A stretch of 64,000 nucleotides of DNA from an uncultured Pseudomonadota bacterium (GCA_963843375.1 CAWJKT010000001.1:128001-192000), one strand, 5' to 3'. Counted from the first letter of the stretch, positions 2,677-51,931 are shown. Numbers and translations: made by a program. The notes: generated by a model from the sequence alone, not told the origin.

Positions 2677-2684
2677 GGAGAGGT

Positions 2685-10601: not shown

Positions 10602-13600
10602 ATGAACGGGTCCTTTAAAATTTACATATCCCTTTTACGCAAAAACTTTAAAACGTTTTTTGTGCATTCGAGTTTTTTGTCTTTTTTGTGTCTTTTCTTC
10701 GTTTCTTTCACCGTTGTTCCTTCCGCACAGGCACAGTCACCCCAACTTAAAATCTCAGGTAATGAGGTCGTTAACGCCAGCAGTGGTTGTACGGTCCAAC
10801 TGAAGGGCGTGGACCTGTCCGGGTTGGAATACAGCCCCACCGGGGACACCGGAAGCGGTTATCCCACGACCGTCGTTGACGGCACGACCATGACCAATTA
10901 TGTAGCCATCATCACCGAGGCGATCAACGTATGGCACGCGAACTGTATCCGCCTTCCCATGAATCAGGATTTTTGGTTCGGTGGCTGTGGAAATTCCAAA
11001 GCCTCGGGCGAGAATCAAACGGCCTATAAAGACATGATCCAGGCCGTCGTGAATTATTGCTCCAGTAACAACGCCTATGTCGACTTGGATTTGCACTGGT
11101 CGGGCACCTCGGCCGTCACCACGGCACCTTGCGGAAGCGGATGGGGAACCGCCACCGGCCAAGAACCCATGCCGGACATGAATGCGGTGACATTTTGGTC
11201 CTCTGTGGCCTCCACTTACGCGAATAATTCAGCGGTCATGTTCGACCTTTATAACGAACCTTACGATCCAAGCGGAGACGACACCACATTTTGGGACGTC
11301 TGGCGCAATGGAGGATCCACGGGATCCGCTCCCGCCACCACGCCGGGACTCCAGGCACTGCTGACGGCGGTCCGTAACGCGGGAGCTAACAATATCGTGG
11401 TGGCGGGAGGCTTGAACTGGGCTTTTGACTTGAGGGGTGTCGTCGGCCAGGAAACAGGCAGCACCACGGCCTACGCCCTGACCGACACCGGTTCGGGTTA
11501 CGGGGTGCTTTATTCCTCCCATTGTTATTCAAGCAAAGGTTACACGGTGGGAAGCGGATGGGATCCCTATGTGACAATCGCCACTTCCACCGTACCCGTC
11601 ATCATTGAGGAATTTGGAGCCCAATCATCTGACCCCGCCGGTTGGGACAGCTCTGCCATCAGTTGGATTGAGGGAAACAACGATAAGAGTTACGTTTATG
11701 GGGGAATGGCTTGGAGTTTTACTCCCGACGACTCTCCCGACCTGTTGACGAGTTACACGGGGTTTACCACGACTTCTTATCATGGCGCCCCGGTTTCCAC
11801 TTGGTTGGCCGACCTCTATGAAACACCAACGCCTAATTGCTCAAGTGGCGGGAGTACACCAACTTTCACTTTTACACCCACTTCCACCTTCACAAAAACC
11901 AGTACGCCTAGTTTAACTAATACCCCCTCGAATACGCCTTCCTCAACAACTACATTAACCCGGACGAATAGCCCCACCCCTACTCCCAGCTACACAGCTA
12001 CCTCTACGGCCTCAAAAACGGTTACTCCCACTGTGACTAATACGACCACCTCAACCGCCACATTGACTAAAACGGCAACCGCCACTTCAACCCCAAGTTT
12101 CACGACCACGAATACCCCGGTTAGTACGGCGACTCAAACCGCGACGGCTACCGCTACTCGTACGGCTACCACAACAACCACCAATACCGCCAGCAATAGC
12201 CCGACGAATACTTCTTCATTCACGCCGACACAAACATCCACGAATACTTCCACTCACACTTCCACGGCGACCGCCACTGTTACTCCGGTCAATACCGCGA
12301 CCCAAACTGTGACAGCTACTACTACAGGAACCGCCTCCGCGACGGCCACCAATACAACCACCCGCACCCCCACCGGGACGCCCACTAATACCTTTGTCGA
12401 AACCGGGACGAATACGGCTATCAGTACCCCGACGGGCACGGCCACAAGCACGGCGACTAATACGTCAACATCCACTGCCACCAATAGCGCCACCAAGACG
12501 GCGACGAATACCACGACCCATACACCCACGAACACGTCGACTCAGACCCCTTCGAACAGCCCGACTTCCACCCCCACCGGGACGCCCACCAATACCTTTG
12601 TCGAAACCGCGACGAATACGGCTACCAGTACCCCGACGGGTACGGCCACAAGCACGGTGACTAATACGTCAACCTCCACTGCCACCAATAGCGCGACGAA
12701 AACAGTCACGAGTACTGTCACTAACACTTCAACGAATTCGGCGACCAATACCATTACCAACACAACCACGAACACGCCGACTCAGACCTCTTCAAATAGT
12801 CCGACTTCCACACCTTCCGTAACCCTCACCGGGACGCCCACCAATACCTTTGCCGAAACCGCGACGAATACGGCTACCAGTACCCCGACCGGTACGGCCA
12901 CAAGCACCTCGACTAATACGTCAACGTCCACTGTCACCAATACCGCGACAAAAACAGTCACGAATACTGTCACTAACTCATCAACGAATACGATCACTAA
13001 TACCGTCACCAACACACCCACGAACACGCCGACTCAGACCTCTTCAAATAGCCCGACTTCCACACCTTCCGTAACCCTCACCGGGACGCCCACCAATACC
13101 TTTGCCGAAACCGCGACGAAAACGGCCAGCAATACTCCCAGCAATACAGTCACATCCACTACCTCTTTCACGCCGACTTCGACGTCTTCATTGACTGCGA
13201 CTTCTACTGCCAGCTATTCACCCACTAAGACTCAGATTTACACCACAACCTCAACCACTACCTCTACCGCAACATTGACCTTGACCATTACGCCTACCTT
13301 CAGCCCCACGCCTGTGACCGTCGCGGCCTCGCAAGGGTCCAATCCGCCCGGGAATTCAACCCAAGTCCAAGGGGCTTCCGGCGTGACCATCCAACAGATT
13401 CAGATGAACAATCCCAGCGGCGGCGCGGTTACGATTACCAGTATCACGATCTTCGAGACAGGCGTTCCGCCCGCCGGGATCACTTCCCTTGATCTTTTCG
13501 CTAATGGAACGCTGATAGGCACGGCCAGCTTCAACGGGTCAACCGCCACCTTTAACTTCAACAGCGTTATTCCGGGGGACAATGGAGCGGTGACCTACGA

Positions 13601-14114
13601 GGTTACGGTGAATTTTTCTCCGGGATCATCAACGGGGAGTTATGAGTTTAGCGCGACGGGGGCGGCGGGAAGCAACGGCGAGGCCCTTCTCTTTAGCGGG
13701 ATTCCCGTGGCTGGCGCCACGGTCACTCTGGCGGCGGCCACGGCGACCGAAACGCCGACTTCAACGACGACACCTGTAGCGACCGGAACCTTTACGTCTT
13801 TGCCGACGGCGACCACCACCAAGACGGCAACCCCCTCGGCCAAACCGACGGTGGTGGTTTATCCGAACCCCGCCACGGGCGGAACGGTCCAGTTGAATCC
13901 GGATTTGACTTCTGAGTCGAACGTGAGCATCGAAATCTTCACGATCGCCTTCCGGAAAGTGAACACTTTGAATTATTCAAACATCCAACCGGGCGAAAGT
14001 GTGCCTATCCCCTTGAGTGATAGTTGGGGAACGCCCTTGGCCAGCGGGCTTTATTATGTTGTCGTGCAAACCAACCAGGGAAGAAGCGTCGTCAAACTCC
14101 TCATTCTGCATTAA
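10602..14114 (+). CDS. Secreted GH5 endoglucanase-like enzyme with ~490 aa Thr-rich linker, Ig-like domain and T9SS-CTD-like C-terminal domain
   Basis: Signal peptide AQA|Q; 'NCIRLPMNQDFW', 'DLDLHW', acid/base 'LYNEP', nucleophile 'IEEFG'; TxT repeats; tail 'VYPNP...LASGLYYV...KLLILH'. Confidence 0.88.
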   Translation: MNGSFKIYISLLRKNFKTFFVHSSFLSFLCLFFVSFTVVPSAQAQSPQLKISGNEVVNASSGCTVQLKGVDLSGLEYSPTGDTGSGYPTTVVDGTTMTNYVAIITEAINVWHANCIRLPMNQDFWFGGCGNSKASGENQTAYKDMIQAVVNYCSSNNAYVDLDLHWSGTSAVTTAPCGSGWGTATGQEPMPDMNAVTFWSSVASTYANNSAVMFDLYNEPYDPSGDDTTFWDVWRNGGSTGSAPATTPGLQALLTAVRNAGANNIVVAGGLNWAFDLRGVVGQETGSTTAYALTDTGSGYGVLYSSHCYSSKGYTVGSGWDPYVTIATSTVPVIIEEFGAQSSDPAGWDSSAISWIEGNNDKSYVYGGMAWSFTPDDSPDLLTSYTGFTTTSYHGAPVSTWLADLYETPTPNCSSGGSTPTFTFTPTSTFTKTSTPSLTNTPSNTPSSTTTLTRTNSPTPTPSYTATSTASKTVTPTVTNTTTSTATLTKTATATSTPSFTTTNTPVSTATQTATATATRTATTTTTNTASNSPTNTSSFTPTQTSTNTSTHTSTATATVTPVNTATQTVTATTTGTASATATNTTTRTPTGTPTNTFVETGTNTAISTPTGTATSTATNTSTSTATNSATKTATNTTTHTPTNTSTQTPSNSPTSTPTGTPTNTFVETATNTATSTPTGTATSTVTNTSTSTATNSATKTVTSTVTNTSTNSATNTITNTTTNTPTQTSSNSPTSTPSVTLTGTPTNTFAETATNTATSTPTGTATSTSTNTSTSTVTNTATKTVTNTVTNSSTNTITNTVTNTPTNTPTQTSSNSPTSTPSVTLTGTPTNTFAETATKTASNTPSNTVTSTTSFTPTSTSSLTATSTASYSPTKTQIYTTTSTTTSTATLTLTITPTFSPTPVTVAASQGSNPPGNSTQVQGASGVTIQQIQMNNPSGGAVTITSITIFETGVPPAGITSLDLFANGTLIGTASFNGSTATFNFNSVIPGDNGAVTYEVTVNFSPGSSTGSYEFSATGAAGSNGEALLFSGIPVAGATVTLAAATATETPTSTTTPVATGTFTSLPTATTTKTATPSAKPTVVVYPNPATGGTVQLNPDLTSESNVSIEIFTIAFRKVNTLNYSNIQPGESVPIPLSDSWGTPLASGLYYVVVQTNQGRSVVKLLILH
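12766..14109 (+). repeat. Direct repeat copy 1 (~1,344 bp), apparently identical to 16458-17801
   Basis: Same sequence at offset 3,692; four alternate-frame ORFs in the track have identical translations at this offset. Confidence 0.93.
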
Positions 14115-14440
14115 AAATAACTTTAAAGTTTTAACCGAGAATCCAATCAAGAAGTGTTCGGCTTTCTCATTCTCATGTGGTTACCTACCTTTGCCTGCGG
14201 TAATAAAGTTCATTTAAAAATTAAACTATCTGGTTGAACGTGTTAGTTTTTTGATTTAACGGGTACTTCAAAGGACCTTTATTTTGGTCCCTTTGGGCTA
14301 TAAATATAAAAACATGATATATTTAATAAAACGATTTAATGCTTTGAAAAAGCGTTTTATCTAGCTTCGACAAAACTAATTGCGTTTTGTTGCGGATCGT
14401 TTCATTGCTTCTGAAGGCTTTAAAATTTAAAGGTGACACT

Positions 14441-17400
14441 TTGAACAAGTCTCCAAAAAAATTATCCTCCCAAACAAGAATGTTTTTGTTTGGCCCTTTC
14501 CTAAAAACGTTTCGGATGAAAACTAATTCTCCCTTTCTTTTACTTTTAATCTTTTTGTATTCCGCTTTTTTCGATTCAACCCCAGCGCAAGCCGCTCCAC
14601 CCCAATTGAAAGTTGTGGGTAACCAGATCGTCACCGCCAGCGGGGGATGCACCGTGCGATTGACCGGAGTAAATCTTGATTCTTTGGAATGGGAAGCCCA
14701 GCCGGGGGATGGTCCCAGTGGCGGCGACGGGGTTCTGACACAACTGCAGGAGGCGGTCAAATATTGGAACGTCAATTGCGTCCGCATTCCCCTGGATCAG
14801 GACTGGTGGGATGGAAACGCCCAAACTACCCCTAACAATCGGGGTTCCACCAGTCAATCGGGCTACCAAAGCTTCGTGGACTCACTTGTGGCCTTCTGCA
14901 ATACCAATAACATCTATTGCGATCTTGACCTGCAATGGTCCGGGGACGGGTCCACGGGTACAGCCACCGAGCAATATTCCATGCCCGATGAGAACAGCCT
15001 AGTCTTCTGGGCCAGTGTCGCGGCCCGTTACGCCAACAACACTTCCGTGATCTTTGACACCTTCAACGAGCCCTACCCAACTTCCTGGTCTGTCTGGTTG
15101 GATGGTGGTACGACCGCCGAGGGCTTTACCACACCGGGCTTGCAGGCAATCGTAAACAAGATTCGTGCCACCACCGCCAGCGCCAGCAGCACTCTGGCCA
15201 GCGGCACAAATGCCGAGAATGTTTGCATCGTCGGGGGCCAACAGTATTCCTATTATTACGTGGGCATGAGTCCAGTAGTGGATGTCACTGGGGGAAACGG
15301 CATCGTCTACTCGGCCCACATCTACAACAACAAAGGCACGAACACTGCCGCTGGATGGGAGTCCAATATCGAACCGGCTCTCACCTATGGACCGGTGTTT
15401 ATTGAGGAATTCGGCAACTCGGCCAATACCACCGACGGCGGCACTTTCGTGAACAGCGTGATTACCTTTATGAACGGTACCAACGACAAGAATTACATTT
15501 ATGGGGGAATGGCTTGGGACATGGATATTCAGGCGACGCCACTCCTACTTTCGGACTGGTCCTCAACTCTATCCGCACCTGTTTCCACAGGAACTACCGG
15601 CTGGGTGCTGACGTCTTACGAAGGACAATCGGTCTATGGCTGGCTGAAAGGCCTTACCTATCCCACCTGTTCCTCCAGCGGGGCTACCCCAACTTTCACC
15701 TTTACTCCAACCTCCACTTTCACAAAAACCAGCACGCCCAGTTTTACTAGTACCCCCACGAATACCTCTACCTCAACAGCTACTTTAACTCGGACGAATA
15801 GCCCCACCCCCACTCCCAGCAACACCCCCACCTCTACGGCCTCAAAAACGGTTACTCCCACTGTGACTAATACGACCACCTCAACCGCCACATTGACTAA
15901 AACGGCAACCGCCACTTCAACCCCAAGTTTCACGACCACGAATACCCCGGTTAGTACGGCGACTCAAACCGCGACGGCTACCGCTACCCGTACGGCCTCC
16001 GCAACAGCCACTAATACCCCCAGCAATAGTCCAACCAACACTTCTTCATTCACGCCGACTCAGACAGGCACAAATACTTTCACTTATACTTCTACGGGGA
16101 CCACCACGAGTACCCCGGTCAATACCTCTACTTTAACCGCAACCCGCACTTCAACCGCGACAGCCACTAACACCAGCAGCAACAGTCCAACATTTACTTT
16201 ATCCACAACGCCTAGTTCCACAGCCACGAATACCCCGGTTAATACGAGGACTCAGACTGTGACGGCTACCGCTACAGGAACGGCCACCGCGACGGTCACC
16301 AATACCGTTAGCAATAGCCCCACTAATACTTCTTCGTTAACGCCAACCGGGAGCGCTACGAACAGCCCCACCCGCACTTCCACAGAAACGGCCACCTATA
16401 CTTTGGTGAATACCGGAACCCCGACTTCGACGTCCACCAGCACTGTAACAGGATCAGCCACGAACACGCCGACTCAGACCTCTTCAAATAGTCCGACTTC
16501 CACACCTTCCGTAACCCTCACCGGGACGCCCACCAATACCTTTGCCGAAACCGCGACGAATACGGCTACCAGTACCCCGACCGGTACGGCCACAAGCACC
16601 TCGACTAATACGTCAACGTCCACTGTCACCAATACCGCGACAAAAACAGTCACGAATACTGTCACTAACTCATCAACGAATACGATCACTAATACCGTCA
16701 CCAACACACCCACGAACACGCCGACTCAGACCTCTTCAAATAGCCCGACTTCCACACCTTCCGTAACCCTCACCGGGACGCCCACCAATACCTTTGCCGA
16801 AACCGCGACGAAAACGGCCAGCAATACTCCCAGCAATACAGTCACATCCACTACCTCTTTCACGCCGACTTCGACGTCTTCATTGACTGCGACTTCTACT
16901 GCCAGCTATTCACCCACTAAGACTCAGATTTACACCACAACCTCAACCACTACCTCTACCGCAACATTGACCTTGACCATTACGCCTACCTTCAGCCCCA
17001 CGCCTGTGACCGTCGCGGCCTCGCAAGGGTCCAATCCGCCCGGGAATTCAACCCAAGTCCAAGGGGCTTCCGGCGTGACCATCCAACAGATTCAGATGAA
17101 CAATCCCAGCGGCGGCGCGGTTACGATTACCAGTATCACGATCTTCGAGACAGGCGTTCCGCCCGCCGGGATCACTTCCCTTGATCTTTTCGCTAATGGA
17201 ACGCTGATAGGCACGGCCAGCTTCAACGGGTCAACCGCCACCTTTAACTTCAACAGCGTTATTCCGGGGGACAATGGAGCGGTGACCTACGAGGTTACGG
17301 TGAATTTTTCTCCGGGATCATCAACGGGGAGTTATGAGTTTAGCGCGACGGGGGCGGCGGGAAGCAACGGCGAGGCCCTTCTCTTTAGCGGGATTCCCGT

Positions 17401-17806
17401 GGCTGGCGCCACGGTCACTCTGGCGGCGGCCACGGCGACCGAAACGCCGACTTCAACGACGACACCTGTAGCGACCGGAACCTTTACGTCTTTGCCGACG
17501 GCGACCACCACCAAGACGGCAACCCCCTCGGCCAAACCGACGGTGGTGGTTTATCCGAACCCCGCCACGGGCGGAACGGTCCAGTTGAATCCGGATTTGA
17601 CTTCTGAGTCGAACGTGAGCATCGAAATCTTCACGATCGCCTTCCGGAAAGTGAACACTTTGAATTATTCAAACATCCAACCGGGCGAAAGTGTGCCTAT
17701 CCCCTTGAGTGATAGTTGGGGAACGCCCTTGGCCAGCGGGCTTTATTATGTTGTCGTGCAAACCAACCAGGGAAGAAGCGTCGTCAAACTCCTCATTCTG
17801 CGCTGA
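14441..17806 (+). CDS. Paralogous secreted GH5 enzyme with Thr-rich linker and the same C-terminal module
   Basis: 'NCVRIPLDQDWW', 'FNEP', 'HIY', 'IEEFG'; TTG 14441 chosen because its context (aaggtgacact-ttgaac) mirrors gene 1 (aaggggacacc-atgaac); ATG 14480 or 14516 are alternatives. Confidence 0.88.
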   Translation: MNKSPKKLSSQTRMFLFGPFLKTFRMKTNSPFLLLLIFLYSAFFDSTPAQAAPPQLKVVGNQIVTASGGCTVRLTGVNLDSLEWEAQPGDGPSGGDGVLTQLQEAVKYWNVNCVRIPLDQDWWDGNAQTTPNNRGSTSQSGYQSFVDSLVAFCNTNNIYCDLDLQWSGDGSTGTATEQYSMPDENSLVFWASVAARYANNTSVIFDTFNEPYPTSWSVWLDGGTTAEGFTTPGLQAIVNKIRATTASASSTLASGTNAENVCIVGGQQYSYYYVGMSPVVDVTGGNGIVYSAHIYNNKGTNTAAGWESNIEPALTYGPVFIEEFGNSANTTDGGTFVNSVITFMNGTNDKNYIYGGMAWDMDIQATPLLLSDWSSTLSAPVSTGTTGWVLTSYEGQSVYGWLKGLTYPTCSSSGATPTFTFTPTSTFTKTSTPSFTSTPTNTSTSTATLTRTNSPTPTPSNTPTSTASKTVTPTVTNTTTSTATLTKTATATSTPSFTTTNTPVSTATQTATATATRTASATATNTPSNSPTNTSSFTPTQTGTNTFTYTSTGTTTSTPVNTSTLTATRTSTATATNTSSNSPTFTLSTTPSSTATNTPVNTRTQTVTATATGTATATVTNTVSNSPTNTSSLTPTGSATNSPTRTSTETATYTLVNTGTPTSTSTSTVTGSATNTPTQTSSNSPTSTPSVTLTGTPTNTFAETATNTATSTPTGTATSTSTNTSTSTVTNTATKTVTNTVTNSSTNTITNTVTNTPTNTPTQTSSNSPTSTPSVTLTGTPTNTFAETATKTASNTPSNTVTSTTSFTPTSTSSLTATSTASYSPTKTQIYTTTSTTTSTATLTLTITPTFSPTPVTVAASQGSNPPGNSTQVQGASGVTIQQIQMNNPSGGAVTITSITIFETGVPPAGITSLDLFANGTLIGTASFNGSTATFNFNSVIPGDNGAVTYEVTVNFSPGSSTGSYEFSATGAAGSNGEALLFSGIPVAGATVTLAAATATETPTSTTTPVATGTFTSLPTATTTKTATPSAKPTVVVYPNPATGGTVQLNPDLTSESNVSIEIFTIAFRKVNTLNYSNIQPGESVPIPLSDSWGTPLASGLYYVVVQTNQGRSVVKLLILR
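16458..17801 (+). repeat. Direct repeat copy 2 (~1,344 bp)
   Basis: Matches 12766-14109 and diverges only within the final sense codon (CAT vs CGC). Confidence 0.93.
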
Positions 17807-17874
17807 TTCACCAAGAAAAGACGAATCCATGCGGAGTCTTTAGGCCGAATTTGGCGGCGAATTTGTTTAGGCAG

Positions 17875-19938
17875 CTAACGATTTTGGGGTGGAGAAAGGG
17901 ATTGAAGGGCTTGAACTGCCTGGGCGTGGTTGGGATTTAAACTTAGTGTTTTTTCCCATAATTTCCTGGCATCAGCTTCATTTCCCGCCTGGTAAGCCGC
18001 CATCCCTTCATAATAATAGGCGTCCGGATCGTTAGGGTCGATTGACACGGCTTTCGCAAACCAGTTCCCGGCTTGCTTCAAATCCCCCATGGAAAAGTAA
18101 TCAATGCCAACGTTTACGGCGTACCCGGGGTTTTGGGGATCCCAGCTCTGCACCCATAAAAGATGGGAGAGACTTTTTTCATATAAGGACCGGACCTGTT
18201 GAAGCCGGGAAGAAGGGGAGAGTCTCGTCTGGATCTTCAAGGCCTGGGCTTCACCCATCCCTTGAACAGCCATCCATAAGCGCGCCATCCCATAATCCTT
18301 CAGGAAATAGTCCCATGAAACATCGTCCACCGAGTCATAGGGTTTTTGGAAATTCCTTAAGCGCATTTTATCCCACAGACGGTCGGCCCTCGCCTCGTCA
18401 AAGACGGGATTAGCAGGAGGCACAAACCCCTCTTGGGTCAATCCATTTGGAACCAGGCGAATTTCTCCCAACCCGTCCGCTTCCAAATCCGGATAAGTGA
18501 AAAAGAATCTGTGCCCGGGATTTTGATCCAACATCCATTGGAAAAGATGGCCCGAGATGTATTCCTTACCCTTCTCGTGGCGGGGATAAGGAATTTTCAA
18601 TCCGGGTTGGGTACGGGCCAAATAAATCCGATACCAATCCATCGGAAGGCTTCCGCCACCCAGGACAGCTAGATCGGGTCTTTTTTGTTCGATCATTTGA
18701 AAATACCAACAGGGAAAATCTAAGACGTCCCCCTTACAAAAGAAAAAACCTCCCACGGGGACAGAACGCCAGGCGTTCAAAACGTAATCGTAGGTATAGG
18801 TATAAAATTCCTGATTTCCCTGAACCCAGCGGGCGAGAACGAGGGCCAACACCAGGGCCCAGGCGAAATAGGGGGCGGTTTTGACAGCCTTCGGATGGCT
18901 GGGGCCAAAAAGTCGTAGGAGAAAACGGAAGCCCAGGCCTGAAAAGAGCGGAATAAAGATAAAGGAAGCGATGGAATAATTTTGCATGAGGTAAATTTTT
19001 TGGCTGGAGAATTTGGAGAACACACACACGGCCGCGAAGAGACCCGCCCAAGAAAGTAGCAACCCCGCCATATGACGACGCTCACCGCGCCATGCGGCGA
19101 AAAAACCGAAAATAACCAAAATCCCAACTCCGGAAAATTCCACCGCCGCCGAGCGCAAGTAATAAAAACCCTGCTGTGCCCACAAAAAGACGTCCCCCGT
19201 AAAATCCTTGTTCTTGTCCACGTAACGGGTCACATGGCGCAGAAAATTCTGGACATCCACTGGATGGGCCCAATTGACCAGCGGATCCAGGGATGACCTG
19301 AGAGGCAGGTAAAGATAAAGGGAAAGGCCGATGGTCAAGAAAGCTGCGCTTTTGATAAGGTCCTTGGCTGCCACTTCCCGTTTGCTCAGTTGGATCCAGA
19401 CCAGGAAGGTAAATCCACCTCCGGCCGCCAACATGCTCATCCAATGGTTACCTAGGGACAACCCGAAAAGGAAAAAAGCCAAGGACCGTCTTCCCCGAAA
19501 AAGAGCGCCTAAGACCGCTAAAAGGAAAACAGCCGTCAATTGGTATATCCCGTTTTTGGCGCTCAAGGCGGCCGGGTAAGCGGTGGCTCCGGCCATCCAA
19601 AGCAGGGCGAAAGGAAGACTTAGAGAATGCTCCATGTTGAAACGATCTTTCAGAAACCGAAACAGTAAGTAGCAGGCCAAGGCCCCCGTGAATGCCGAAA
19701 GCAGATTGACCCGAAGACAAACTGGCCCGAGGGGCAAAAGGGAAAATAGGCGGCCCAACAGCGTAAAAAGCGGATAACCAGGTGGATGGGCAATGCCCAG
19801 AGACGCCGAAACGGTGATAATTTCCGGACTGTCATCCATATAAAAGGAAGGGTTTAGGCCTACAAGGGCCAGTTCAAAAGCCAGGAGAAAAAGCAGGATT
19901 CCGGGAAAGAAGCTTTTTTCATTCAACCACTTATCCAC
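17875..19938 (-). CDS. DUF2723/TMEM260-like GT-C membrane protein with C-terminal TPRs
   Basis: 'MDDSPEIITVSASLGIAHPPGYPLFTLLGRLF', 'GLSLGNHW', 'YLYLPLRS...VNW', 'GDVLDFPCWYFQMIEQKRPDL'; TPRs at the C-terminus. Confidence 0.8.
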   Translation of the reverse strand: MDKWLNEKSFFPGILLFLLAFELALVGLNPSFYMDDSPEIITVSASLGIAHPPGYPLFTLLGRLFSLLPLGPVCLRVNLLSAFTGALACYLLFRFLKDRFNMEHSLSLPFALLWMAGATAYPAALSAKNGIYQLTAVFLLAVLGALFRGRRSLAFFLFGLSLGNHWMSMLAAGGGFTFLVWIQLSKREVAAKDLIKSAAFLTIGLSLYLYLPLRSSLDPLVNWAHPVDVQNFLRHVTRYVDKNKDFTGDVFLWAQQGFYYLRSAAVEFSGVGILVIFGFFAAWRGERRHMAGLLLSWAGLFAAVCVFSKFSSQKIYLMQNYSIASFIFIPLFSGLGFRFLLRLFGPSHPKAVKTAPYFAWALVLALVLARWVQGNQEFYTYTYDYVLNAWRSVPVGGFFFCKGDVLDFPCWYFQMIEQKRPDLAVLGGGSLPMDWYRIYLARTQPGLKIPYPRHEKGKEYISGHLFQWMLDQNPGHRFFFTYPDLEADGLGEIRLVPNGLTQEGFVPPANPVFDEARADRLWDKMRLRNFQKPYDSVDDVSWDYFLKDYGMARLWMAVQGMGEAQALKIQTRLSPSSRLQQVRSLYEKSLSHLLWVQSWDPQNPGYAVNVGIDYFSMGDLKQAGNWFAKAVSIDPNDPDAYYYEGMAAYQAGNEADARKLWEKTLSLNPNHAQAVQALQSLSPPQNR

Positions 19939-22309: not shown

Positions 22310-22557
22310 GAAACCGCCGTAAAAAAGGATGGCTTATTATAAGTGTCCTTCTTGGGAAAGGTTTTTAAGAATTGTGAAAAATTAAGATGATGAAAAGTAT
22401 TCGAACCAGACTTTTCCCCGTGGCCCTTTAAAATATTGAATAAGGTTAGGGAGGTTCCGGCATCTTTAACTATTTTTAGGCGTATAATGACGCCGGATTT
22501 CAGTTGAAGGACGGTTTTTCTACAGTGAAATAGGTAGTCAATGAAAGAAATGAAATT

Positions 22558-24474
22558 ATGACTCTTCCCTCCGTCCAAGAAAGTGTTTCTCCAACCAAGG
22601 ACTCCCTTTCATTTTGGGCAGTCGCTTTACTTCCCGCCATTCTGACATTTTTGTTTTACCTGCCGGTTTTAAAAAACAACTTCGTGACCTGGGACGATCC
22701 ACAGATGATCCAGGATAATCCCTATATCCGCAGTTTCAGCCTGGAATCCATTGGTGGGATGTTTAAGAATTTTTACGCGGCAAACTGGATACCCCTTACC
22801 TGGCTTTCACTGGCCCTCGATTTCAAGTTGGGGGGCTTGGATCCCTTCATCTACCATTTAGATAACCTGATTTTGCATTGCTGCAACACGGCGCTTGTTT
22901 TTTTTCTTGGCGTTAGGATTCTGGCAATCCCGGGGAAGGGACTGGAGCGGGAAGGGAGTCCAGCGGGGTGGGTGACACCAGCGGCTTTTTTGACGGCCCT
23001 CTTGTTTGGTCTTCACCCCATTCATGTGGAGTCAGTGGCTTGGGCCACCGAACGAAAGGACATGCTCTTTGGTATTTTCTATCTTTTGAGCCTCCTGTTT
23101 TACTTGGATTACTCGTCGGCCTCCAGCCAGAAGGTTTGGAAGTTAAATGTCTGCCTTTTTCTCTTCGTGATGTCCCTTTTGTCCAAGCCCATGGCCGTCA
23201 CACTTCCCTTCGTCTTGCTTCTTTTTGATGTTTGGCCCTTGAATAGGTTTTCCTCCAGCCCCAAAAAGATTTTGTTGGAAAAACTTCCTTTTTTTATACT
23301 CGCTTTGATATCGGGATGGATGACCATGCTTGCCCATTTCCACGAAGGTCCCGCACCTACCACCCGAGATTTGCCCCTGGATTATCGAGTTATGAATGCG
23401 TTTCATTCGCTTGTTTTTTATTTGGTGAAAATGGTTGTTCCCGTAGATTTGGCGACGCTTTACCCGATCGTTTTATTGAAAACTTTTTCCCTCGAGTATG
23501 TGGCTGCGTTTTTAGCGGTTATTTTAATAAGCGGAATTTGTTTTCGTTACCGCAAGAAACGGCCCTATCTAGCAGCTGCTTCAATATATTATTTGGTCAC
23601 CCTTGCCCCCACATTAGGAATTGAATACGCAGGAGGCTATGCGGCGGCGGACCGGTTTACTTATCTTCCAAGTTTGGGTCCCTTTTTGCTTTTGGCCTCG
23701 GTTTTGGCTTTTGGCCTTTCAAGCCGCCGTTTCCTTTTTAACTTTTTGGTCGCGGGGTTAACGGTTCTCCTGGGGTTGGGGACCATTCAGCAAATAGGAA
23801 TTTGGAAGAATTCGATCAGCCTTTGGGAGAACGTGGTTAAAGTTGCTTCACCATACGTTCCCGACATCATTTACGAACATTTGGGGGACGCTTATATGTC
23901 CGCAAGTCAATGGGATGACGCCTTAGGGGCCTTCAATTCTGCTCTGGCCAACGCCCCTGAAAATGCAGGTTTGCATGAAAAAAAAGGAATCACTCTTATC
24001 AACAAGGGTTTACTTCCCGAATCCGCCAGCGAGTTTAAACTGGAATCCGCACTTGATCCCCAAAATGCCATGGCCCACCGGTATCTTTATTTCGCCAACC
24101 AAAAAATGGGTCATTACCCGGAAGCCTTGGCGGAGGCCCAGGAAGCGGTTCGATTAAACCCAAAGCTTCCAGGCGTCTATAACAGCCTGGGGGCTGCTTA
24201 TTCTTCGATGGCTCAATATGAAAAAGCAGCTGAGGCTTTTGAATCGGCGCATTTAATAGATCCCACGGACACCGGATGTTTAATGAATTTGGCCTCGATT
24301 TATGCCGCTACTGGAAAAATCGCCGAAACGATTAAAATTCTCAATGAGGCTGCCGCTTTACAGCCCCAGAATCCAGATATCTACCAAAGACTGGGTCAGG
24401 CCTATGAAAAAGCGGGGGATCAAAAATCGGCGACGGAGGCTTTCGCCACCGGCAATAGTTTGGCGGGGAAATAG
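22558..24474 (+). CDS. TMTC-like (GT105-like) membrane protein O-glycosyltransferase with TPRs
   Basis: 'NNFVTWDD...IQDNP', 'WIPLT', 'LHPIHVESVAWATERKD', 'LLSKPMAVTLP', 'AADRFTYLP', 'WKNSISLW', then TPRs. Confidence 0.82.
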   Translation: MTLPSVQESVSPTKDSLSFWAVALLPAILTFLFYLPVLKNNFVTWDDPQMIQDNPYIRSFSLESIGGMFKNFYAANWIPLTWLSLALDFKLGGLDPFIYHLDNLILHCCNTALVFFLGVRILAIPGKGLEREGSPAGWVTPAAFLTALLFGLHPIHVESVAWATERKDMLFGIFYLLSLLFYLDYSSASSQKVWKLNVCLFLFVMSLLSKPMAVTLPFVLLLFDVWPLNRFSSSPKKILLEKLPFFILALISGWMTMLAHFHEGPAPTTRDLPLDYRVMNAFHSLVFYLVKMVVPVDLATLYPIVLLKTFSLEYVAAFLAVILISGICFRYRKKRPYLAAASIYYLVTLAPTLGIEYAGGYAAADRFTYLPSLGPFLLLASVLAFGLSSRRFLFNFLVAGLTVLLGLGTIQQIGIWKNSISLWENVVKVASPYVPDIIYEHLGDAYMSASQWDDALGAFNSALANAPENAGLHEKKGITLINKGLLPESASEFKLESALDPQNAMAHRYLYFANQKMGHYPEALAEAQEAVRLNPKLPGVYNSLGAAYSSMAQYEKAAEAFESAHLIDPTDTGCLMNLASIYAATGKIAETIKILNEAAALQPQNPDIYQRLGQAYEKAGDQKSATEAFATGNSLAGK

Positions 24475-24499
24475 AAATTAATTGAAAGGATAAAGGGGT

Positions 24500-26653
24500 T
24501 TGTCCAAGGACAATAAAATAAATTATATCCTGAGAAAAAGACACCTTTCGCTTCGTGAATTGTCGGCCCAAACGGGGCTCGCTGAAACGAAAGTCGCCCA
24601 AATTCTCGAAATGGAGAATCCGGAAAAGGCTTCAACGATCGCCTTGCCCGGTTTTCTGCAAGGTAGGAAAGGCACCTTATGGGCTTGCGCGATATTTTTG
24701 GCGCTGATCGTGGTCGCTTTTTACCTTCCGGTTCTGAAAAATGATTTCGTCAATTGGGACGACAAGGACAATATTACGGATAACCTTCGAATCAGGAGGC
24801 TCGACTGGGATTCGCTAGGTTGGATGTTTACGACCTTCGCCACCGGGAATTGGATGCCTCTTACCTGGCTGTCTTTCGCCCTTAATTACGGAGTAAACGG
24901 ATTAGACCCCCGGGTGTTCCACGCCACTAATGTCTTATTACACGCATTAAATACCGTATTGGTTTTCTTTATTTGCTTTCGCTTGATGAAACATCTTCCC
25001 GAAAAAGCCGGGTCCGCATCCACCCTCAAAATCAAGGGCTTTGGAGTGCCCATCGCTTTCATGACGGCCATTCTGTTCGGACTCCATCCCATCCATGTGG
25101 AATCGGTGGCTTGGGCCACGGAACGCAAAGACGTGCTTTATGCCTTATTCTACCTCTCGGCCCTGTGGCTATATTTGGACGACTCTTCCTCCCTCGAGAA
25201 AAAGGGCTTCAAACACTGGGCCTGCTTGGGGTTTTTTCTGCTGGCCCTGATGTCCAAACCCATGGCCATTACGCTTCCGTTTATTTTCCTGATTCTCGAT
25301 GGCTGGCCCTTGGGTCGATGGAGTTTGGGTTTCCAAAAATTGTTGAAAGAGAAGGCGGTTTTTTTCGCTGTTGCTGGGGGAGCAGTCCTCGTCACAATGG
25401 CTTCGCATGAAAAAACCCTTTCCTATGCCAAAAGCGGAGTCGAGTTTTATTGGGTGATGAATTCATTCCGGTCGCTTGTATTTTATCTTACGAAAATGGT
25501 CTGGCCCGAGGGGTTGACCACTTATTATCCTTTCCCACCCAGTTTGAGCGGTTTCTATTTGTTCGAAAATTTTTGTGCGGCGGCGGCGGTGATCCTGGTT
25601 TCAGTCCTTTTTTTTCGTTACCGCCAAAAGGCACCCTATCTTTTGACGGCCTGGCTTTATTATGTCGTCATCCTTTTACCGGTCGTAGGACTCATCCAGA
25701 CAGGAAGCCAAGCCGCTGCCGACCGCTATACATATTTGGCCAGCCTGGGCTTGTTCCTACCTCTTTCGGCAGGGTTGGCTTTATTGGTTTCTTACCGTTG
25801 GATTCTTTACGCGGGATTCATATTCCTGGCCACTGTTTTGATGGGCTTGGCAACGATGGACCAGATCGGAACATGGAGAAATTCCCAGACCTTATGGGAA
25901 AGGGTGACTCAAATTTATCCCGCCGAAAACCCAATGGCTTATTCCAAGTTGGGGGAAATTTATCTCAAGGCCCACCGGTATGACGACGCGCTGGATGTCT
26001 ATAGCCGGGCGGCGGCCATTCCTCCGGCGCTGGCACCGACCTTCAACGGATTGGGAAGGGCCTTTTTGTACAAAGATAGAGTTCCGGAGGCGGTTCAGGA
26101 ATTTGAATATGCGCTTAAGCTGGATCCTCAATTCACCTTGCCTCGTCTCAATCTTTGGACGGTTTACGAACGACAAGGTCGGCACGAAGAAGCTATCGGG
26201 CAAATGCAATTAGCCCTTAAAATCGAACCCAATTCACCTTTGTTCTACAACGATCTCGGAGTAAGTTACGGCTTTTTGAAAAGGAATGAGGAGGCGCGAA
26301 TGGCGTTTGAAAAAGCCCACCGCCTGGATCCGGATAATTCCGAATACCTGGTCAACCTCGCCACCATTTACGTGTGGCAGGGAAAACCCGAAAAGGCCTT
26401 GGAGTGGTACCGCGGAGGAATCCACCTGCACCCCCGGGAGCCGGTTTATTACTTGAAGATGGCGGATATTTACCTATCCCAGGGGTTGAAGGCAAAGGCT
26501 TTGGAGAAGCTCCGCACGGCTTGGGTCTTGGATCCCGCTAGTCCTAAATTAATCCAGGAATTGGGGGAGGACTTTGAGAAGGCCGGGCAAACCGGTTTGG
26601 CCAAACAATGCATTGCCAAGGCCCAGTCCATGGTGGTTAGGATAAAACCATAA
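24500..26653 (+). CDS. Second TMTC-like GT-C protein with TPRs and an N-terminal HTH-like extension
   Basis: 'NDFVNWDD', 'LHPIHVESVAWATERKD', 'MSKPMAITLP', 'AADRYTY', several TPRs; TTG start after aggataaagggg. Confidence 0.82.
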   Translation: MSKDNKINYILRKRHLSLRELSAQTGLAETKVAQILEMENPEKASTIALPGFLQGRKGTLWACAIFLALIVVAFYLPVLKNDFVNWDDKDNITDNLRIRRLDWDSLGWMFTTFATGNWMPLTWLSFALNYGVNGLDPRVFHATNVLLHALNTVLVFFICFRLMKHLPEKAGSASTLKIKGFGVPIAFMTAILFGLHPIHVESVAWATERKDVLYALFYLSALWLYLDDSSSLEKKGFKHWACLGFFLLALMSKPMAITLPFIFLILDGWPLGRWSLGFQKLLKEKAVFFAVAGGAVLVTMASHEKTLSYAKSGVEFYWVMNSFRSLVFYLTKMVWPEGLTTYYPFPPSLSGFYLFENFCAAAAVILVSVLFFRYRQKAPYLLTAWLYYVVILLPVVGLIQTGSQAAADRYTYLASLGLFLPLSAGLALLVSYRWILYAGFIFLATVLMGLATMDQIGTWRNSQTLWERVTQIYPAENPMAYSKLGEIYLKAHRYDDALDVYSRAAAIPPALAPTFNGLGRAFLYKDRVPEAVQEFEYALKLDPQFTLPRLNLWTVYERQGRHEEAIGQMQLALKIEPNSPLFYNDLGVSYGFLKRNEEARMAFEKAHRLDPDNSEYLVNLATIYVWQGKPEKALEWYRGGIHLHPREPVYYLKMADIYLSQGLKAKALEKLRTAWVLDPASPKLIQELGEDFEKAGQTGLAKQCIAKAQSMVVRIKP

Positions 26654-27055
26654 AAATTTTTTATGGTTTCTGGTGTAGGCCTTGGCTTCAATCTAAGATT
26701 TTCATTTCATTCAAAAATCCTGGTTTAACGGGAAATTCAGGGTAATAAATATGGGGAAATTAGCCATGTATTTTTTGGACAAGAACTGATTAATATTGTA
26801 AAAGTGTGAGATACTTCTTAAGTAATAGCCATTTTAACCGTTAATATCGTTATAAGGTAATCGATCAATACTCTTACGACATCAAAATTCAGATTAAATG
26901 TGAATGTTATAGTAATGACAAATGGAACCGGTTTCATCTCTTAGTTCTTCAGAGGAACTTATTTTGAAATGAGGTTTACCAAAATTTATGATCTGATCCC
27001 GATCATTGAAGGTTTGGTTAGCCTAATTTATTGTTAAGTGAGTGAAAGACAAGAA

Positions 27056-30000
27056 ATGTTCATCAAGACATTAAATACTATTTTAAATCGTTTTAGGGTT
27101 TTTGGATTTGGGGTTTTATGTTGTCTAGCCCTATCCGCCAATCAAGTCCAAGCCCAATGCACTCCCACCTCTGCAACGCTTTGCGCATCCGGTGACGACA
27201 ATACGACAATCTGGGTTCAAGGTGTCTCTATCGGTTATTTCCCTTATGCGGGCGCCCCCGGCACCGGAGACGCAGGAAATGTAACTTGCATCACAGTGTC
27301 GACTGCTTTGTTGACGGGATCGCAAGTCTGTTTGGCCGTTGAAACCCAAAACACGGCCCCTGACGATAACTTTTCCTCCTGGGATTTGGATATCACATGT
27401 TCCGGAGGAGACCATTCGGAAATCACGAGTTCGGGGAGCGGGATTGAAGAAGAATATGTCCCCACGGGTAATCCCTCCACCCCCCCAGGTAATGATAGCA
27501 GCGGCAACACATGGTACAGCACCGGCTACGACGAAGGCGCCGAAGGCTTCTCCTCCTCCTATTGCTCCAGCGGCGTAACGGCTTCCACTTGGGCCAATCA
27601 GATTTATAACCCGGTTACTGGACAACCCCTTCCTTTTATCGCCAATAATTGCTCCGGGGATTACTCCAGCGGAAATTCGGCGGGCGCGCTTTTTTTTCGT
27701 CAATGTACGACTATTCCAGCTCCCACGACCCTTATTGGTCCTCCAAATTTTACCATTAACAAATCTCAAGGTACCGCCACTGTCAGCGGCACCAATTTAT
27801 TCCTGACTTACACCATCACGGTCTGCAATACCGGAGGTCCGGTCACGAACGGATCCGTCACTATCGTGGATAATTTGACCACTGTGGGCACAGGTAATGG
27901 CGCCAGTTCATTTTCGTTTGTCGCTTGGGGTTACGGGAGTTCCGGTTGTCCTTTTACGATACCTTATTACAACTCATGCGGCCTCGGAAGCGCGCCTACC
28001 GACAACGGTCAAACGATGATTTTTGGAGAATTCGGCAACGGGTGCGCCACGATGTCGGTGGCGGTTGAGGATTATTATTGGCCTCCCGGTTGCATAACGG
28101 TAACCAATAACGCGTCTTTGTCTTATCCAAGTGGAAACCTGACCTCAAATACCGTCTCCTTTATTGTTACTTGTATTCCCACTCCAACAAATACCCCAAC
28201 TTTTACCAATACTCCCACACCCAGTCCGACTCATACCTATACTTTTACACCGACCTATACCCCCACGGTTCAGACCCCTACTCCCACATTTACCAATACC
28301 CACACGAACACCTTCACTAATACTCCCACCAACACATATACCTTTACGGCCACCCCGACCCCCACTTTTACCAATACTTTCACGGACACCAATACTCCCA
28401 CGAACACCTATACTCGTACTTCAACCCCTACCAACACCAATACGTTTACGAATACACCTAGTCCCACCCCTACTAACAGCCCTACTCCAACTCATTCGAA
28501 TACCCCTACTAATACAGCTACTAATACGGCAACCAATACGGTTGTAAATACGCCCACGAACACACCCACGAAAACCAACACGAATACAGCGACCAACACG
28601 GCTACCCCTACGCCAACCAATACTCTCACCAACACACCTACCAACACCCCCACACCCACGCACACCAACACTCCCACGAATACCATGACACCTACACCCA
28701 CCAACACCATAGTGAACACTCCCACGAATACTCCAACCAATACCCCGACTCTTACAAAAACGAATACGCCGACTAATACCGTGACCAACACCCTTACCAA
28801 CACCGATACCTCCACGGCAACCAATACCCTCACTTACACACCCACCAACACTCCCACTCCCACGCATACCAACACTCCCACGAATACCCCCACCTATACT
28901 CCCACGAATACGCCCACCAATACCGACACGCCCACCATTACCATGACTCCGACAAATACTAACGTTATCACCCCAACGGTTACGAACACCCCTACAAAGA
29001 CGGATACACCCACCCCGACCAACACCCCAACGAATTCTCCAACGAATACCCCGACCATTACCCCCACGAATACGCCTACCAAATCTCCGACTCCGACTAA
29101 CACCTTTACCCAGACCAATACGCCGACCAATACCTTTACTTTGATCCCAACCGCAACCCCTACGAACACTCCACAGCCGACGGCCACGACCGGGGCTACC
29201 GTTGTGCCGGTGCCAACTCTTACGCCTACCTCAACCATCACTCCGCTTCCCACCAACACCGCCACTTCTACGCATATGTCCACTGCGACTTCCACGCCCA
29301 CTTTGACCGCGACTAATTCGAACACCCCCACCAATTCCACGACGAGCACCCCTACCATCACCCAAACCAATACGCTTACCAAAACCGATACCAACACACC
29401 CACGAATTCACCGACTAATAGCTCCACCAACACCGCCACAGCCACCATTACGATGACTCCGACGAATACCAATGTCATCACCCCGACCTACAGCAACACC
29501 CCCACGATTACCGACAGCTATACCTCGACTAGCACCCCGACGAATACACCGACCAATACGCCCACGCCTACCCTGACGAATTCGGCGACGAATACCTTTA
29601 CCAGTACCGCCACTTCCACAGCCACCAGCACGCCCACGAACACCTTGGCCAACACCGCTACGAATACCCCCACTGAGACCGTGACCAACACGCTTCAAAA
29701 CACCGCGACCAATACGGCGACGAATACTTTGACCGGTACGCCGACGAACACCGCCACCGCTACCACGACCAACACGATTCAAAACACGGCTACCAGTACC
29801 GCTACGAATACTTTGGCCAACACCGCTACTAATACTCCAACCACAACCGCGACCGGCACGCCGACTAATACCCACACTTCCACCGCCACCTTTACCCTGA
29901 CCAATACGACCACCAATACCGAGACATTCACCAATACTGAAACGCCAACCTATACCCACACCGCGACCGCGACATATACCGCCACCAACACGCCCACACC

Positions 30001-31318
30001 TACACCCCCGATGTCGGTTTCGATGAATAAACAGGTTTCCTCGACAACGGCCCAATCGGGCAATAACTTGACTTACACCCTCAATATCACCGTCTCCGGG
30101 AACAGTGCGCAGAACCTGGTGGTGAATGACACCTTGCCCACGAATGAAACCTTCCTAGGGTTCCTCGCCAGCCCAGCGGGGACGACCACCAATTCCACCG
30201 CGACGGGTCTATTAACCTGGAACCTGCCTTCGCCCCTTGCGGCGGGGAGCTACCAACTGGAATATCAGGCGCAATTGAATAATTTACTCACGGCCGGCAG
30301 TACCCTTATTAATAACGCCCAATTAACCTACCTGGGAGGCGCCCCGGTGACGGCCAGCGTGGGAGTATTGGTGATAGGGCAATACACGGTCAAAATCGGG
30401 GTCTATAACGAGGCGGGAGAATTGGTGGATACGATCCTTACGGAACAACTCTCCCAACCTATCGATAATATTGTGCTCCAATCCAGTAATGCCATCACCA
30501 GTTTGAACGGGCCCAATAATGCTGTGACGATTTATTACGACAATAGCCCCTTGGGGAGTTGGAATGGGACGAATTCCAATGGAAGCCTGGCTTCCAACGG
30601 GGCCTATTACGTGAAGGTGGACAGCATCAGTTCTATGGGAACCGAAGTGAGCACGACGCAGCAGGTGATGGTCAACCGGACGCTTTATACGTCGACGATC
30701 CTGATTTACAACGAGGCAGGGGAAGTGGTGAAACACTTATATGCCTATTCCGATGACCCAGGCCAAGCCGGTGTGGCATCGGTGCAATTATCATCCTCCG
30801 TAATAGAACCGGGTCTCGGCTCAAGCCCGGGTACGCCTAGCGACCTGACAATAACCTTAAGCAATGGAACAACCGAGGTGTGGGACGGGACGAATGACAG
30901 CGGTTCCTTTGTGCAAAGCGGTGAATATTTGGTGGAAGTCCACACGACGGACGGAACTGGCGGGGAAACCACGGTGATAAAAGAAGTATCGGTGGAAGAC
31001 CAAAATACGGCCAAAGGAATGGGAGTAGTGACGGCTTGGCCCAATGTTTTAAACCCTTCCGAAGGTCTGACGACGACTTTTCATACCAACGTATCCATGA
31101 ATTTGACGTTGGAGGTGTCTGTTTACACGGTTGCGGGTGAACTGGTCCACCAGGTGACTGGCGGCACAGGAACCGGCCAAGTGACATGGAATGCTTCCGG
31201 TGTGGCAAGCGGCACCTATTTGGCGGTGGTTCAGGTTTTCAACTCCACTGGCGGGCTAATGGGCCGGGCAAACCCTCAAACTGGCCGTCTTCCATTAACC
31301 TGGTTTTTTCAATGGTAG
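27056..31318 (+). CDS. Large secreted surface protein: Cys-rich N-terminal domain, DUF11-like domains, ~610 aa Thr/Pro/Asn linker, three FlgD-Ig-like repeats; true stop probably 31298 (frameshift)
   Basis: Signal peptide VQA|Q; '[11 protein letters not shown]' and '[11 protein letters not shown]...VVNDTLP'; 'VYNEAGELV', 'IYNEAGEVV', 'VYTVAGELV' with '[13 protein letters not shown]...SGEY'. Confidence 0.8.
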
Positions 31319-33553: not shown

Positions 33554-33574
33554 AATTTCGGTTTTAAATGATTG

Positions 33575-41262: not shown

Positions 41263-41269
41263 AGGGGAA

Positions 41270-50969: not shown

Positions 50970-51931
50970 GGGACCGGGACTCTTGGGGAAGCATTTGGGC
51001 GGCAGCGGGGATGCCCAGCAGGGCGGTAAAAACCGGACCGCCGACGGCCATCAATATGGAGAAGACCACCAAGTCCTCGTGGCGAAGGTTGTTAGTAGTG
51101 AAGAGCATGAATAAGGCTGTCTCCCTTGGTCCGAATCCTAAAATGGAAATCGGCAGTAATTCTACCACGACCATCAAGGGGGCCAATAAAACGAATTTCA
51201 GGTAAGACAAAGGCAGGCCCAGGGCCATAGCCAGCAAATAAGACCGGACAATGGCCGTTTCCCAAGCCAGAAAAGACAGGACGAAGGGGCCGAAAATTTT
51301 AAACGAGGGGATCAGTAACATATGAAGGCTCTCATAAAATTCCTTGCCGTGGTGGGAAAGCTGACCCTCCAGTTTTTTCGACAAAAGGCCAGGCCACGAG
51401 CGGTTTCAATAAGAATTTCATCCAACGGGGGTTGACGAGAGCCAGGATCAGGAGCATCCCGCTCAGCATTCCAATGAAGGTGCCGAAGGCCGGGCCTCCT
51501 TGGGCAAATTCGGAGATGTAGGAAACCAGCGCGATGACGGCCAAAAGAACGATGGAAGCAAGGTCATAGATCCTATCCGCCGCATGTACCCCCAATGCGG
51601 TGGGCATGGGTATTTTGCCAAAACGGTTCAAAAGAACGATGCGGGACACATCCCCCAGTTTACCGGGGGTAACCGCTGCCAGGGGCTGGCCGGAGAGAAA
51701 GGCCAATATGGAATGTTTCACCGAAATGTGCGATTTGGCTTTGGCCACGAAGGACCGCAGCCGCAGAGACTTGAATAAAATTTCAGGCATCCCGACCAGG
51801 ATGGCCAGGAAAAAGAGGCCGAGGTTTAGTTGCTTGAGCCGGTCCCAGGAGGCTTGCAGGTTTAAGGTCGAAACAAGATAAGCGAAAAGAGCGAGGCCGA
51901 TGAGGAAGGCGAAGGGTCTAAGACGGCTCAT
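50956..51931 (-). CDS. Flippase-like membrane protein (LPG synthase TM / UPF0104), one apparent frameshift near 51385
   Basis: 'TPGKLGDVSR', 'DRIYDL' in the first ORF and 'LPISILGFGPRE' in the second. Confidence 0.75.

Follow-up and report, generated by a model that had tools for sequence, protein, structure and literature searches.

In humans, TMEM260 is known to act on extended, proline-spaced peptides, with D441 as the catalytic base, D52, H67, R264 and Y267 as essential residues and R355 as a partly needed one (10.64898/2026.03.17.711096). It also requires an IPT sequon (10.64898/2026.09.21.753134), and its bacterial relatives are mentioned as distant homologues only (PMC10214176). In bacteria, glycosyltransferases of fold type C (GT-C) from the YfhO family, namely PgtC2 and PgfM1, glycosylate Ser/Thr-rich disordered regions, and the pgf genes cluster with adhesin genes (PMC12041528). 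Similarly, glycosylation of CelA, in whose linkers Thr and Pro alternate, needs Cbes_1864, a GT39 enzyme encoded in a glucan degradation locus (PMC6151902). In Bacteroidota, the O-glycan core starts with mannose, and the O-transferase is described as still unidentified (PMC12871550). The present analysis concerns positions 10602-31318 of a 64-kb stretch of DNA from an uncultured soil bacterium (GCA_963843375.1, CAWJKT010000001.1:128001-192000; the whole stretch is called the window), where a block of four GT-C-type genes, G1 to G4, is flanked by proteins A, B and C with long linkers in which about every second residue is threonine (T-x-T, hence TxT). It is proposed, with a probability of about one half, that the block encodes accessory enzymes for the last steps of a genome-wide periplasmic machinery for protein O-glycosylation, with the TxT linkers as acceptors. 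The proposal is supported by the GT-C folds, the catalytic residues, the export signals of the flanking proteins and the conserved linkage of the G1-G2 pair with TxT genes. The features are as follows.

10602..14114, + strand: protein A, 1170 amino acids (aa); signal peptide, glycoside hydrolase family 5 (GH5) domain 104-371, TxT linker 419-899, probable Ig-like domain ~905-1050, type IX secretion system (T9SS)-like C-terminal domain 1086-1168
11856..13298, + strand: linker of A, 481 aa; 45% Thr, 14% Ser, 9% Asn, 8% Pro
12766..14108, + strand: 3' part of A, 1343 nt identical to 16458-17800 in B
14387..17806, + strand: protein B, listed with 1139 aa, ATG 14516 being the likely start; GH5 domain 114-363, TxT linker 434-868 (nt 15686-16990), tail as in A
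17875..19938, - strand: G1, 687 aa; TMEM260-like GT-C, Rossmann-like periplasmic domain and tetratricopeptide repeats (TPRs)
19931..22309, - strand: G2, 792 aa; YfhO-like GT-C with periplasmic alpha/beta domains, without TPR
22310..22557, no strand: AT-rich, divergent intergenic region between G2 and G3
22558..24474, + strand: G3, 638 aa; TMTC-like GT-C with TPRs
24500..26653, + strand: G4, 717 aa; paralogue of G3
27038..31318, + strand: protein C, listed with 1426 aa; signal peptide, Cys-rich N-terminal part without an assigned family, TxT linker 382-989 (nt 28181-30004), DUF11, FlgD-Ig

The listing of open reading frames (ORFs) recovered all seven genes at the coordinates that a first-pass annotation of the window had given, and its picture of four GT-C-type genes in a divergent block, with TxT proteins on both sides, was borne out. 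G2 overlaps the start of G1 by 8 nt, and this pair on the minus strand diverges from G3-G4 on the plus strand across a gap of 248 nt. The alternating-Thr linkers, put at roughly 450-610 aa in that annotation, measure 435-608 aa with 43-46% Thr (A 481 aa, 45%; B 435 aa, 43%; C 608 aa, 46%). The alternation is strict, as T-x-T pairs number 172, 145 and 247 in A, B and C, against 23, 12 and 8 T-T pairs.

G1 is matched by PF11028 (E 9.3e-20) as well as by TPR families, and its residues 13-453 align with human TMEM260 (PDB 9rql; phmmer E 3.5e-20), reaching human residue 490. In this alignment, D36, H51, R238 and D404 of G1 stand opposite human D52, H67, R264 and D441. All four are retained in 7/7 rows of G1 orthologues, which form a clade of their own in a quick tree (SH-aLRT 99). 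N603 and N609, which lie in the TPR part beyond the 9rql alignment, are also invariant in the orthologues. Judged by its sequence, G1 has the GT-C fold and the three-part layout of TMEM260, with the catalytic base present.

For G2, no family was found in Pfam or NCBIfam at E 0.001. PF09586 (YfhO) is present on many of the 120 listed G2 homologues and not on G2 itself; the YfhO label is given because of these homologues and the GT-C fold of the G2 model. The model (pLDDT 93) resembles PglB (5ogl) with a Z score of 20.5 and a root-mean-square deviation (rmsd) of 4.2 over 435 residues, followed by STT3B (Z 20.3) and Pmt4 (18.9). The first-loop D57 is present in 105/111 rows. On the strength of this model, G2 is predicted to have the GT-C fold.

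In Pfam, G3 and G4 are matched by TPR families only. G3 has 11 long helices in 15-415, followed by the TPRs, and displays D46-D47, R166-x-D168, K210 and D365-R366-x-x-Y369. Its model (pLDDT 94.6) gives Z scores of 18.9-19.3 with Pmt2, AglB, Pmt4 and STT3B, the match to Pmt2 chain 6p2r_B reaching 19.3 with an rmsd of 4.1 over 339. These GT-C matches were obtained only with VIA-align, where none of the 50 matches listed for the G3 model is a TMTC or TMEM260 chain; with profile A1, and with Foldseek on the whole G3 model, only TPR proteins came up, and a phmmer search of PDB sequences with the G3 membrane part gave no match. G4 is 41% identical to G3 in alignment A1 and 49% identical over the G3 membrane part. 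The GT-C fold of G3 is thus a prediction from its model, and that of G4 follows from its identity to the G3 membrane part.

When the motifs of the TMTC proteins are followed through the G3 alignment, D46/D47 are kept in 86/87 rows, R166 in 86, D168 in 86, R366 in 87 and Y369 in 86. The Glu of motif M7 is replaced by Asp in 82/87 rows while RxxY is kept. In M4, K210 is found in 87/87 rows, and position 211 is Pro in 57 and Gln in 17; the metal-binding Glu is not kept. Only the Pro of M2 (SHKSYRP) and the second Pro of M6 (PxxP) are kept, and no DW of M5, placed in loop EL4 of TMTC, is found in G3 263-311. DUF1736 (PF08409) has 0 matches in the source genome and occurs in 1/31 genomes overall; the Atlas neighbour cluster of G3 does contain PF08409, with a score of 0.91. 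By these motifs, G3 and G4 are TMTC-like and not members of TMTC. The comparison with TMEM260 and TMTC, acidic motifs included, that the first-pass annotation had proposed thus returned GT-C folds along with the MDD and WDD first-loop motifs. As to the likeness to the eukaryotic enzymes, G1 has four of the five essential residues and the layout, and G3 and G4 lack DUF1736, KE and DW. Its remark that the bacterial homologues are largely uncharacterised agrees with the literature, where full-length prokaryotic TMTC homologues are noted as such (PMC7801869), and no functional study of a bacterial TMEM260 or TMTC homologue was found in the open-access literature. As a separate observation, G4 begins with a weak helix-turn-helix-like segment (24500-24679; HTH_35, E 3.3e-4, under the cut-off), which would be cytoplasmic; a similar start is visible by eye in L069, L072, L075 and L006.

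Orthologues of G1 (at least 59% identity) occur in 8/32 genomes of the order, and all 8 have a G2 orthologue directly upstream. TxT genes flank the GT-C block on both sides in 6/6 loci with both flanks assembled, spread over four genera (the source genome, G001, G009, G012, G036 and G039; G004 and G041, whose contigs end early, are left out). Where the next gene downstream of the G1 orthologue is seen, it codes for a TxT protein in 8/9 cases, the ninth being another GT-C-like gene, and in the metagenome orthologues L137 and L138 a convergent TxT gene lies immediately behind it. The N-terminal domains of these neighbours vary between loci (GH5, subtilase, NHL and others), and linker and tail are constant. 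Four genomes have a common chromosomal context. G012 and G036 carry the pair at another place, inside a >35-kb array of genes with 600-1500-aa linkers; this second context counts as one relocation event. The TMTC-like genes accompany the pair only in the source genome, G001, G004 and G039. In the sister TMEM260 clades, 5/20 loci have a TxT gene within 1 kb, compared with 5.7% of ordinary genes; the binomial p is 0.005, which kinship makes too optimistic. A core YfhO paralogue shows housekeeping synteny and no TxT genes in 8/8 loci fetched.

Several findings, set out in this and the following paragraphs, weigh against the proposal and lend themselves to other explanations. G1 does not retain human Y267 and R355, having D241 and N320 at the aligned positions; a Tyr lies two residues before the Y267 position in G1 and most orthologues, and a register shift is possible. 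GT-C folds do not separate protein from glycan acceptors, and glycan-modifying enzymes score close to the top, with AftD at Z 18.9 for the G2 model and ArnT at 17.5 for the G3 model. In Bacillus and Listeria, teichoic acids are decorated by YfhO (PMC5836110). The pair-TxT linkage may itself be inherited synteny in a surface-gene island, as the loci belong to kin that are not independent. Together with the TMTC-like loci of other phyla, where a TxT neighbour is seen in 0/58 and a GT2 neighbour in 5/21 loci scanned, and with copy numbers that do not track the TxT load, the fold scores and the role of YfhO in teichoic acids favour a rather unlikely alternative: the acceptors of the GT-Cs would be envelope glycans or lipids, such as O-antigen, lipoglycan or a glycan attached earlier, in three-component style, and the place of the GT-Cs beside TxT genes would reflect no more than common membership of a variable island of surface genes inherited in the family. 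It is opposed by the periplasmic base and layout of G1, which serve a peptide acceptor in TMEM260, by the relocation of the pair together with TxT genes and by the core YfhO paralogues, whose housekeeping synteny is free of TxT genes.

The counts within the source genome (G000; 4.05 Mb, 80% complete) also bear on the proposal. Here, 105 ORFs carry TxT segments, with ~27,000 linker residues; an N-terminal hydrophobic stretch, a point in favour of the proposal, is found in 91/105 of them, against 600/1431 other long ORFs, and a sorting-tail-like motif in 59/105, against 8/1431. A profile search gave 60 GT-C ORFs in 34 clusters; the catalogue missed one further family with two copies, so that the permutation was run on 60 of at least 62 ORFs. 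A TxT neighbour lies within 1, 3 and 10 kb of 3, 7 and 11 of the 34 clusters, where 1.3, 3.8 and 10.3 are expected (p 0.16, 0.08 and 0.46), which means no genome-wide proximity. No cluster other than this one is flanked by TxT genes to its left and right (p 0.007-0.02 within 1 kb, by random placement with the locus chosen post hoc). No donor synthase or flippase is encoded in the block (17875-26653). Elsewhere in the genome there are 31 matches to PF00535 (GT2), one GT2 gene standing with a PF03706 gene at 49923-51982, and 0 to the GtrA flippase family PF04138. A pathway dedicated to the neighbouring proteins, as the first-pass annotation had it, is not supported by these numbers; the block is probably not a private system for its flankers but part of a genome-wide machinery.

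Across genomes, the TxT load was taken as the number of matches to a 13-unit Thr-codon pattern in 31 genomes, from which the extra genomes G031-G042 (n=12) are left out; the pattern occurs in 27/31. Its Spearman rho is 0.25 with TMTC-like and 0.01 with TMEM260-like families, and 0.66 with PMT_2 and 0.53 with YfhO; per Mb, the values are 0.13, -0.23, 0.38 and 0.43, and all of them concern matches, not copy numbers, in related genomes that are not independent. Four TxT-free genomes (G021, G022, G028 and G029; 90-98% complete) have 12, 16, 3 and 8 PF11028 matches, and four others (G002, G003, G023 and G025; 96-100% complete) have 1635-3283 TxT matches and no G3 match. Outside the lineage, a TxT gene is seen at 0/58 TMTC-like loci (46 of them at least 10 kb) and at 4/70 distant TMEM260-like loci. 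G1 orthologues are patchy even within the order, although TxT repeats occur in 19/19 family genomes tested. The co-occurrence expected in the first-pass annotation therefore survives as the adjacency of the YfhO-TMEM260 pair to TxT genes across genera; for the number of TMTC and TMEM260 matches it is refuted.

The patchiness of the G1 clade and the better tracking by PMT_2, which is present in 31/31 genomes (rho 0.67 per Mb in the 12 genomes outside the family), raise the question of other enzymes. The TxT linkers might mainly be glycosylated by expanded PMT_2-type GT-Cs or by Wzy_C-type O-oligosaccharyltransferases, of which the source genome has 7 matches, the target of the block being minor or unrelated. 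This is judged unlikely, as genome size and kinship confound the PMT_2 correlation, which turns negative within the family (-0.34 per Mb), and most PMT_2-type genes lie far from TxT genes; it is also not exclusive with the TxT linkers being acceptors for the block.

A further question is whether the linker or a folded domain receives the sugar. Human TMEM260 depends on its IPT-derived sequon, TMTCs act on cadherin domains, and A, B and C have Ig-like domains; all this would suit glycosylation at a sequon in folded domains (Ig-like, DUF11, FlgD or sorting), with the TxT linkers bare or left to other enzymes. A rough scan for IPT-like motifs gave 0 in A, B and C and 5 ORFs genome-wide, a weak result since the sequon tolerates variation. 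Among the neighbours of the pair, linker and tail stay the same and the N-terminal domains change, which further makes acceptors in folded domains improbable. The Ig-like assignment of A 905-1050 is itself weak (Big_7, E 0.026, below the cut-off), and an Atlas search with this segment returned only clusters without names.

If the TxT linkers are indeed the acceptors, the following course of events may be envisaged. GT2 enzymes encoded elsewhere would load single sugars onto undecaprenyl phosphate in the cytoplasm, and these would then be flipped. As the proteins emerge from Sec into the periplasm with their linkers unfolded, G1, with D404 as base and a groove over its Rossmann-like and TPR domains, and/or G2 would transfer the sugar to Thr of the extended linkers. 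The remaining GT-Cs would extend the glycan or add different sugars. The coated linkers could thus become protease-resistant stalks on T9SS-like cargo, for instance on the GH5 enzymes, and the cargo would leave by a T9SS-like route. The enzymes would serve many of the ~105 TxT proteins and not the neighbours alone, and the sugar need not be mannose. Recognition of substrates through the TPRs is suggested by analogy, and the best bacterial precedent concerns the YfhO-like member, which has no TPR.

Other routes were considered as well. A cytoplasmic route of the serine-rich repeat protein/GtfAB or OGT type was rejected, as its components were not found: the source genome, at 80% completeness, has no SecA2, GtfA or GT41, and for an accessory Sec system it has one SecA and 0 TIGR02918 matches over the cut-off. 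STT3/PglB as the transferase was set aside too, with 1 genome match, under the cut-off. A prepilin-like motif occurs in just 3/90 loci, and pilin neighbours were dropped as substrates of the TMTC-like enzymes. An ice-binding solenoid was not retained for the TxT linkers, in which Pro makes up 22% of the positions between Thr pairs. Regarding the exit route, 12 loci pass the PorV_fam cut-off, and SprA-like pieces are found under the cut-off (e.g. C15:110969-114545 and C3:37687-38529). This T9SS-like apparatus lies outside Bacteroidota.

A more far-reaching version, which is tentative and has the odds clearly against it, would regard the YfhO-TMEM260 pair as a transferable cassette, with the TMTC-like and a further GT-C family as add-ons. 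It would place a specific glycan on alternating-Thr T9SS-like stalks, the bacterial TMEM260 acting as a mucin-type linker O-glycosyltransferase and several eukaryote-like GT-Cs working in series in the periplasm, and selection would keep the cassette next to the genes of its substrates. Another polytopic protein, with a C-terminal TPR and no Pfam glycosyltransferase match, accompanies the pair in G009, G039, G041 and L138. It looks like another GT-C family, and it carries what we take, by resemblance, to be an STT3-like periplasmic motif. Copies lie at the following positions.

L111:12794-14713: further polytopic TPR protein (P0121)
G000 C9:193995-195920: further polytopic TPR protein
G000 C31:9896-11815: further polytopic TPR protein

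Giant genes whose TxT linkers span 600-1530 aa form arrays at G012:C11:1-35200, G036:C41:62000-85000 and G000 C18:7239-17333, and one protein of the source genome has a linker of 2246 aa.

The flanking proteins deserve a closer description. The GH5 domains of A and B are matched by PF00150 (E 1.5e-26 and 1.6e-22); A has NEP at 218 and EEF at 336, which we take to be catalytic-type GH5 motifs, and its GH5 domain gave 0 matches among PDB sequences at E 1e-10. The tails of A and B resemble T9SS type A sorting domains, scoring narrowly above the cut-off for TIGR04183 (26.6 and 26.7 against 23 bits) and below it for PF18962. Contigs from public DNA runs connect the 1343-nt tail to both downstream sequences, with the depth about doubling there; the A/B duplication is therefore real, and an assembly artefact is ruled out. 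The 3' identity (linker end, Ig-like domain and tail) suggests a recent duplication or conversion. Two different GH5 heads share this tail, G001 has a single such gene, and the tails appear, from the sequences, to have been recently swapped or duplicated. The last 17 odd codons of C are due to one surplus base at 31266, which is absent from the contigs of 4/4 public runs (from two studies, one run possibly being the assembly's own source); the frameshift is an assembly error.

The host lineage is inferred to be FCPU426-like, since the named relatives nearest to G3 (49-52% identity) bear the label candidate division FCPU426. Cellulolytic Goldbacteria have been placed in the FCPU426 cluster, in a source whose available text does not contain the words threonine or linker (PMC7031533). 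Elsewhere in the window, a second GT-C cluster (38971-55125) has four YfhO-like genes, an FkbM methyltransferase, a GT2, the PF03706 gene, a GT4-type gene and a PMT_2 gene, and its content looks like a fuller lipid-linked sugar pathway. Its PF03706 gene is split here and is one 321-aa ORF in G001; the cluster is partly syntenic in G001 and G039. Two genes at 4948-7848 and 33572-35222, presumably glycoside-hydrolase-like, are split over several frames, probably by assembly indel errors, and their G001 counterparts are single ORFs of 965 and 543 aa. At G000 C8:127371-137291, three genes lie within 10 kb of each other: one that encodes a TxT linker of 1207 aa, a TMEM260-like one with a frameshift and a Wzy_C gene (O-antigen ligase/O-oligosaccharyltransferase-like). 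Tandem arrays of 3-7 TMTC-like genes without TxT neighbours occur at L056, L057, L067, L025 and L027 (Nitrospirota, Bacteroidia and others).

In comparison with the known systems, G3 and G4 share with human TMTC1-4 the 11-transmembrane GT-C part followed by TPRs, DD, RxD, the M4 lysine and (E/D)RxxY (PMC7801869). They differ in having no DUF1736 match, KP in place of KE, no EL4 DW and an NWIP-type motif in place of SHKSYRP; moreover, their type is widespread in bacteria without TxT proteins. Human TMEM260 (PF11028; 9rql, 9rqm and 9rqn) and G1 have in common GT-C, Rossmann-like and TPR parts and the equivalents of D52, H67, R264 and D441. G1, however, is bacterial, is one of about eight paralogues in its genome and does not have Y267 and R355 in register, and the IPT sequon needed by the human enzyme was not matched in its neighbours A, B and C by the rough motif.

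The transferases of streptococcal GtrB/PgtC2 and of the S. mutans Pgf system (PgfS, PgfE, PgfM1 and PgfM2) are YfhO-domain GT-Cs, to which G2 is likened by its homologues and its fold, and they attach sugars outside the membrane; Pgf also has its genes near those of its substrate. The present block differs in having no GT-A donor synthase or epimerase, a diderm host with T9SS-like cargo, TMEM260- and TMTC-like partners and alternating-Thr linkers of 435-608 aa. In Caldicellulosiruptor bescii, Cbes_1864 is likewise a GT-C gene among glycoside hydrolases, there with alternating Thr/Pro linkers, and its deletion is reported to abolish their glycosylation; that system has a single GT39 in a monoderm, whereas the present block has four GT-Cs, which belong to three other families, and the genome dozens of paralogues. 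The O-glycosylation of Bacteroidota is also diderm and periplasmic and concerns exported proteins with T9SS-type tails (PMC12871550), but the D-S/T motif on which it relies is scarce in A, B and C, with 2, 4 and 5 occurrences, and it belongs to a different phylum. Among 14 control genomes, PF11028 is found only in Bacteroides thetaiotaomicron, and this match is a lead for the Bacteroidota O-transferase.

What is already known is the glycosylation of Thr-rich bacterial linkers by a GT-C from a neighbouring gene. What is new is the enzyme set, namely a TMEM260-like protein with an intact base, coupled to a YfhO-like one and with TMTC-like additions, along with the diderm, T9SS-like setting and the conserved cassette. 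The locus provides a TMEM260 homologue with its catalytic base, accompanied by a conserved YfhO partner and by a concrete candidate for the substrate. If the proposal is true, it would bear on the origin of the domain-specific O-mannosylation of animals, on the O-transferase of Bacteroidota and on the means by which a soil and peat lineage equipped with cellulases stabilises ~27,000 Thr-rich linker residues per genome.

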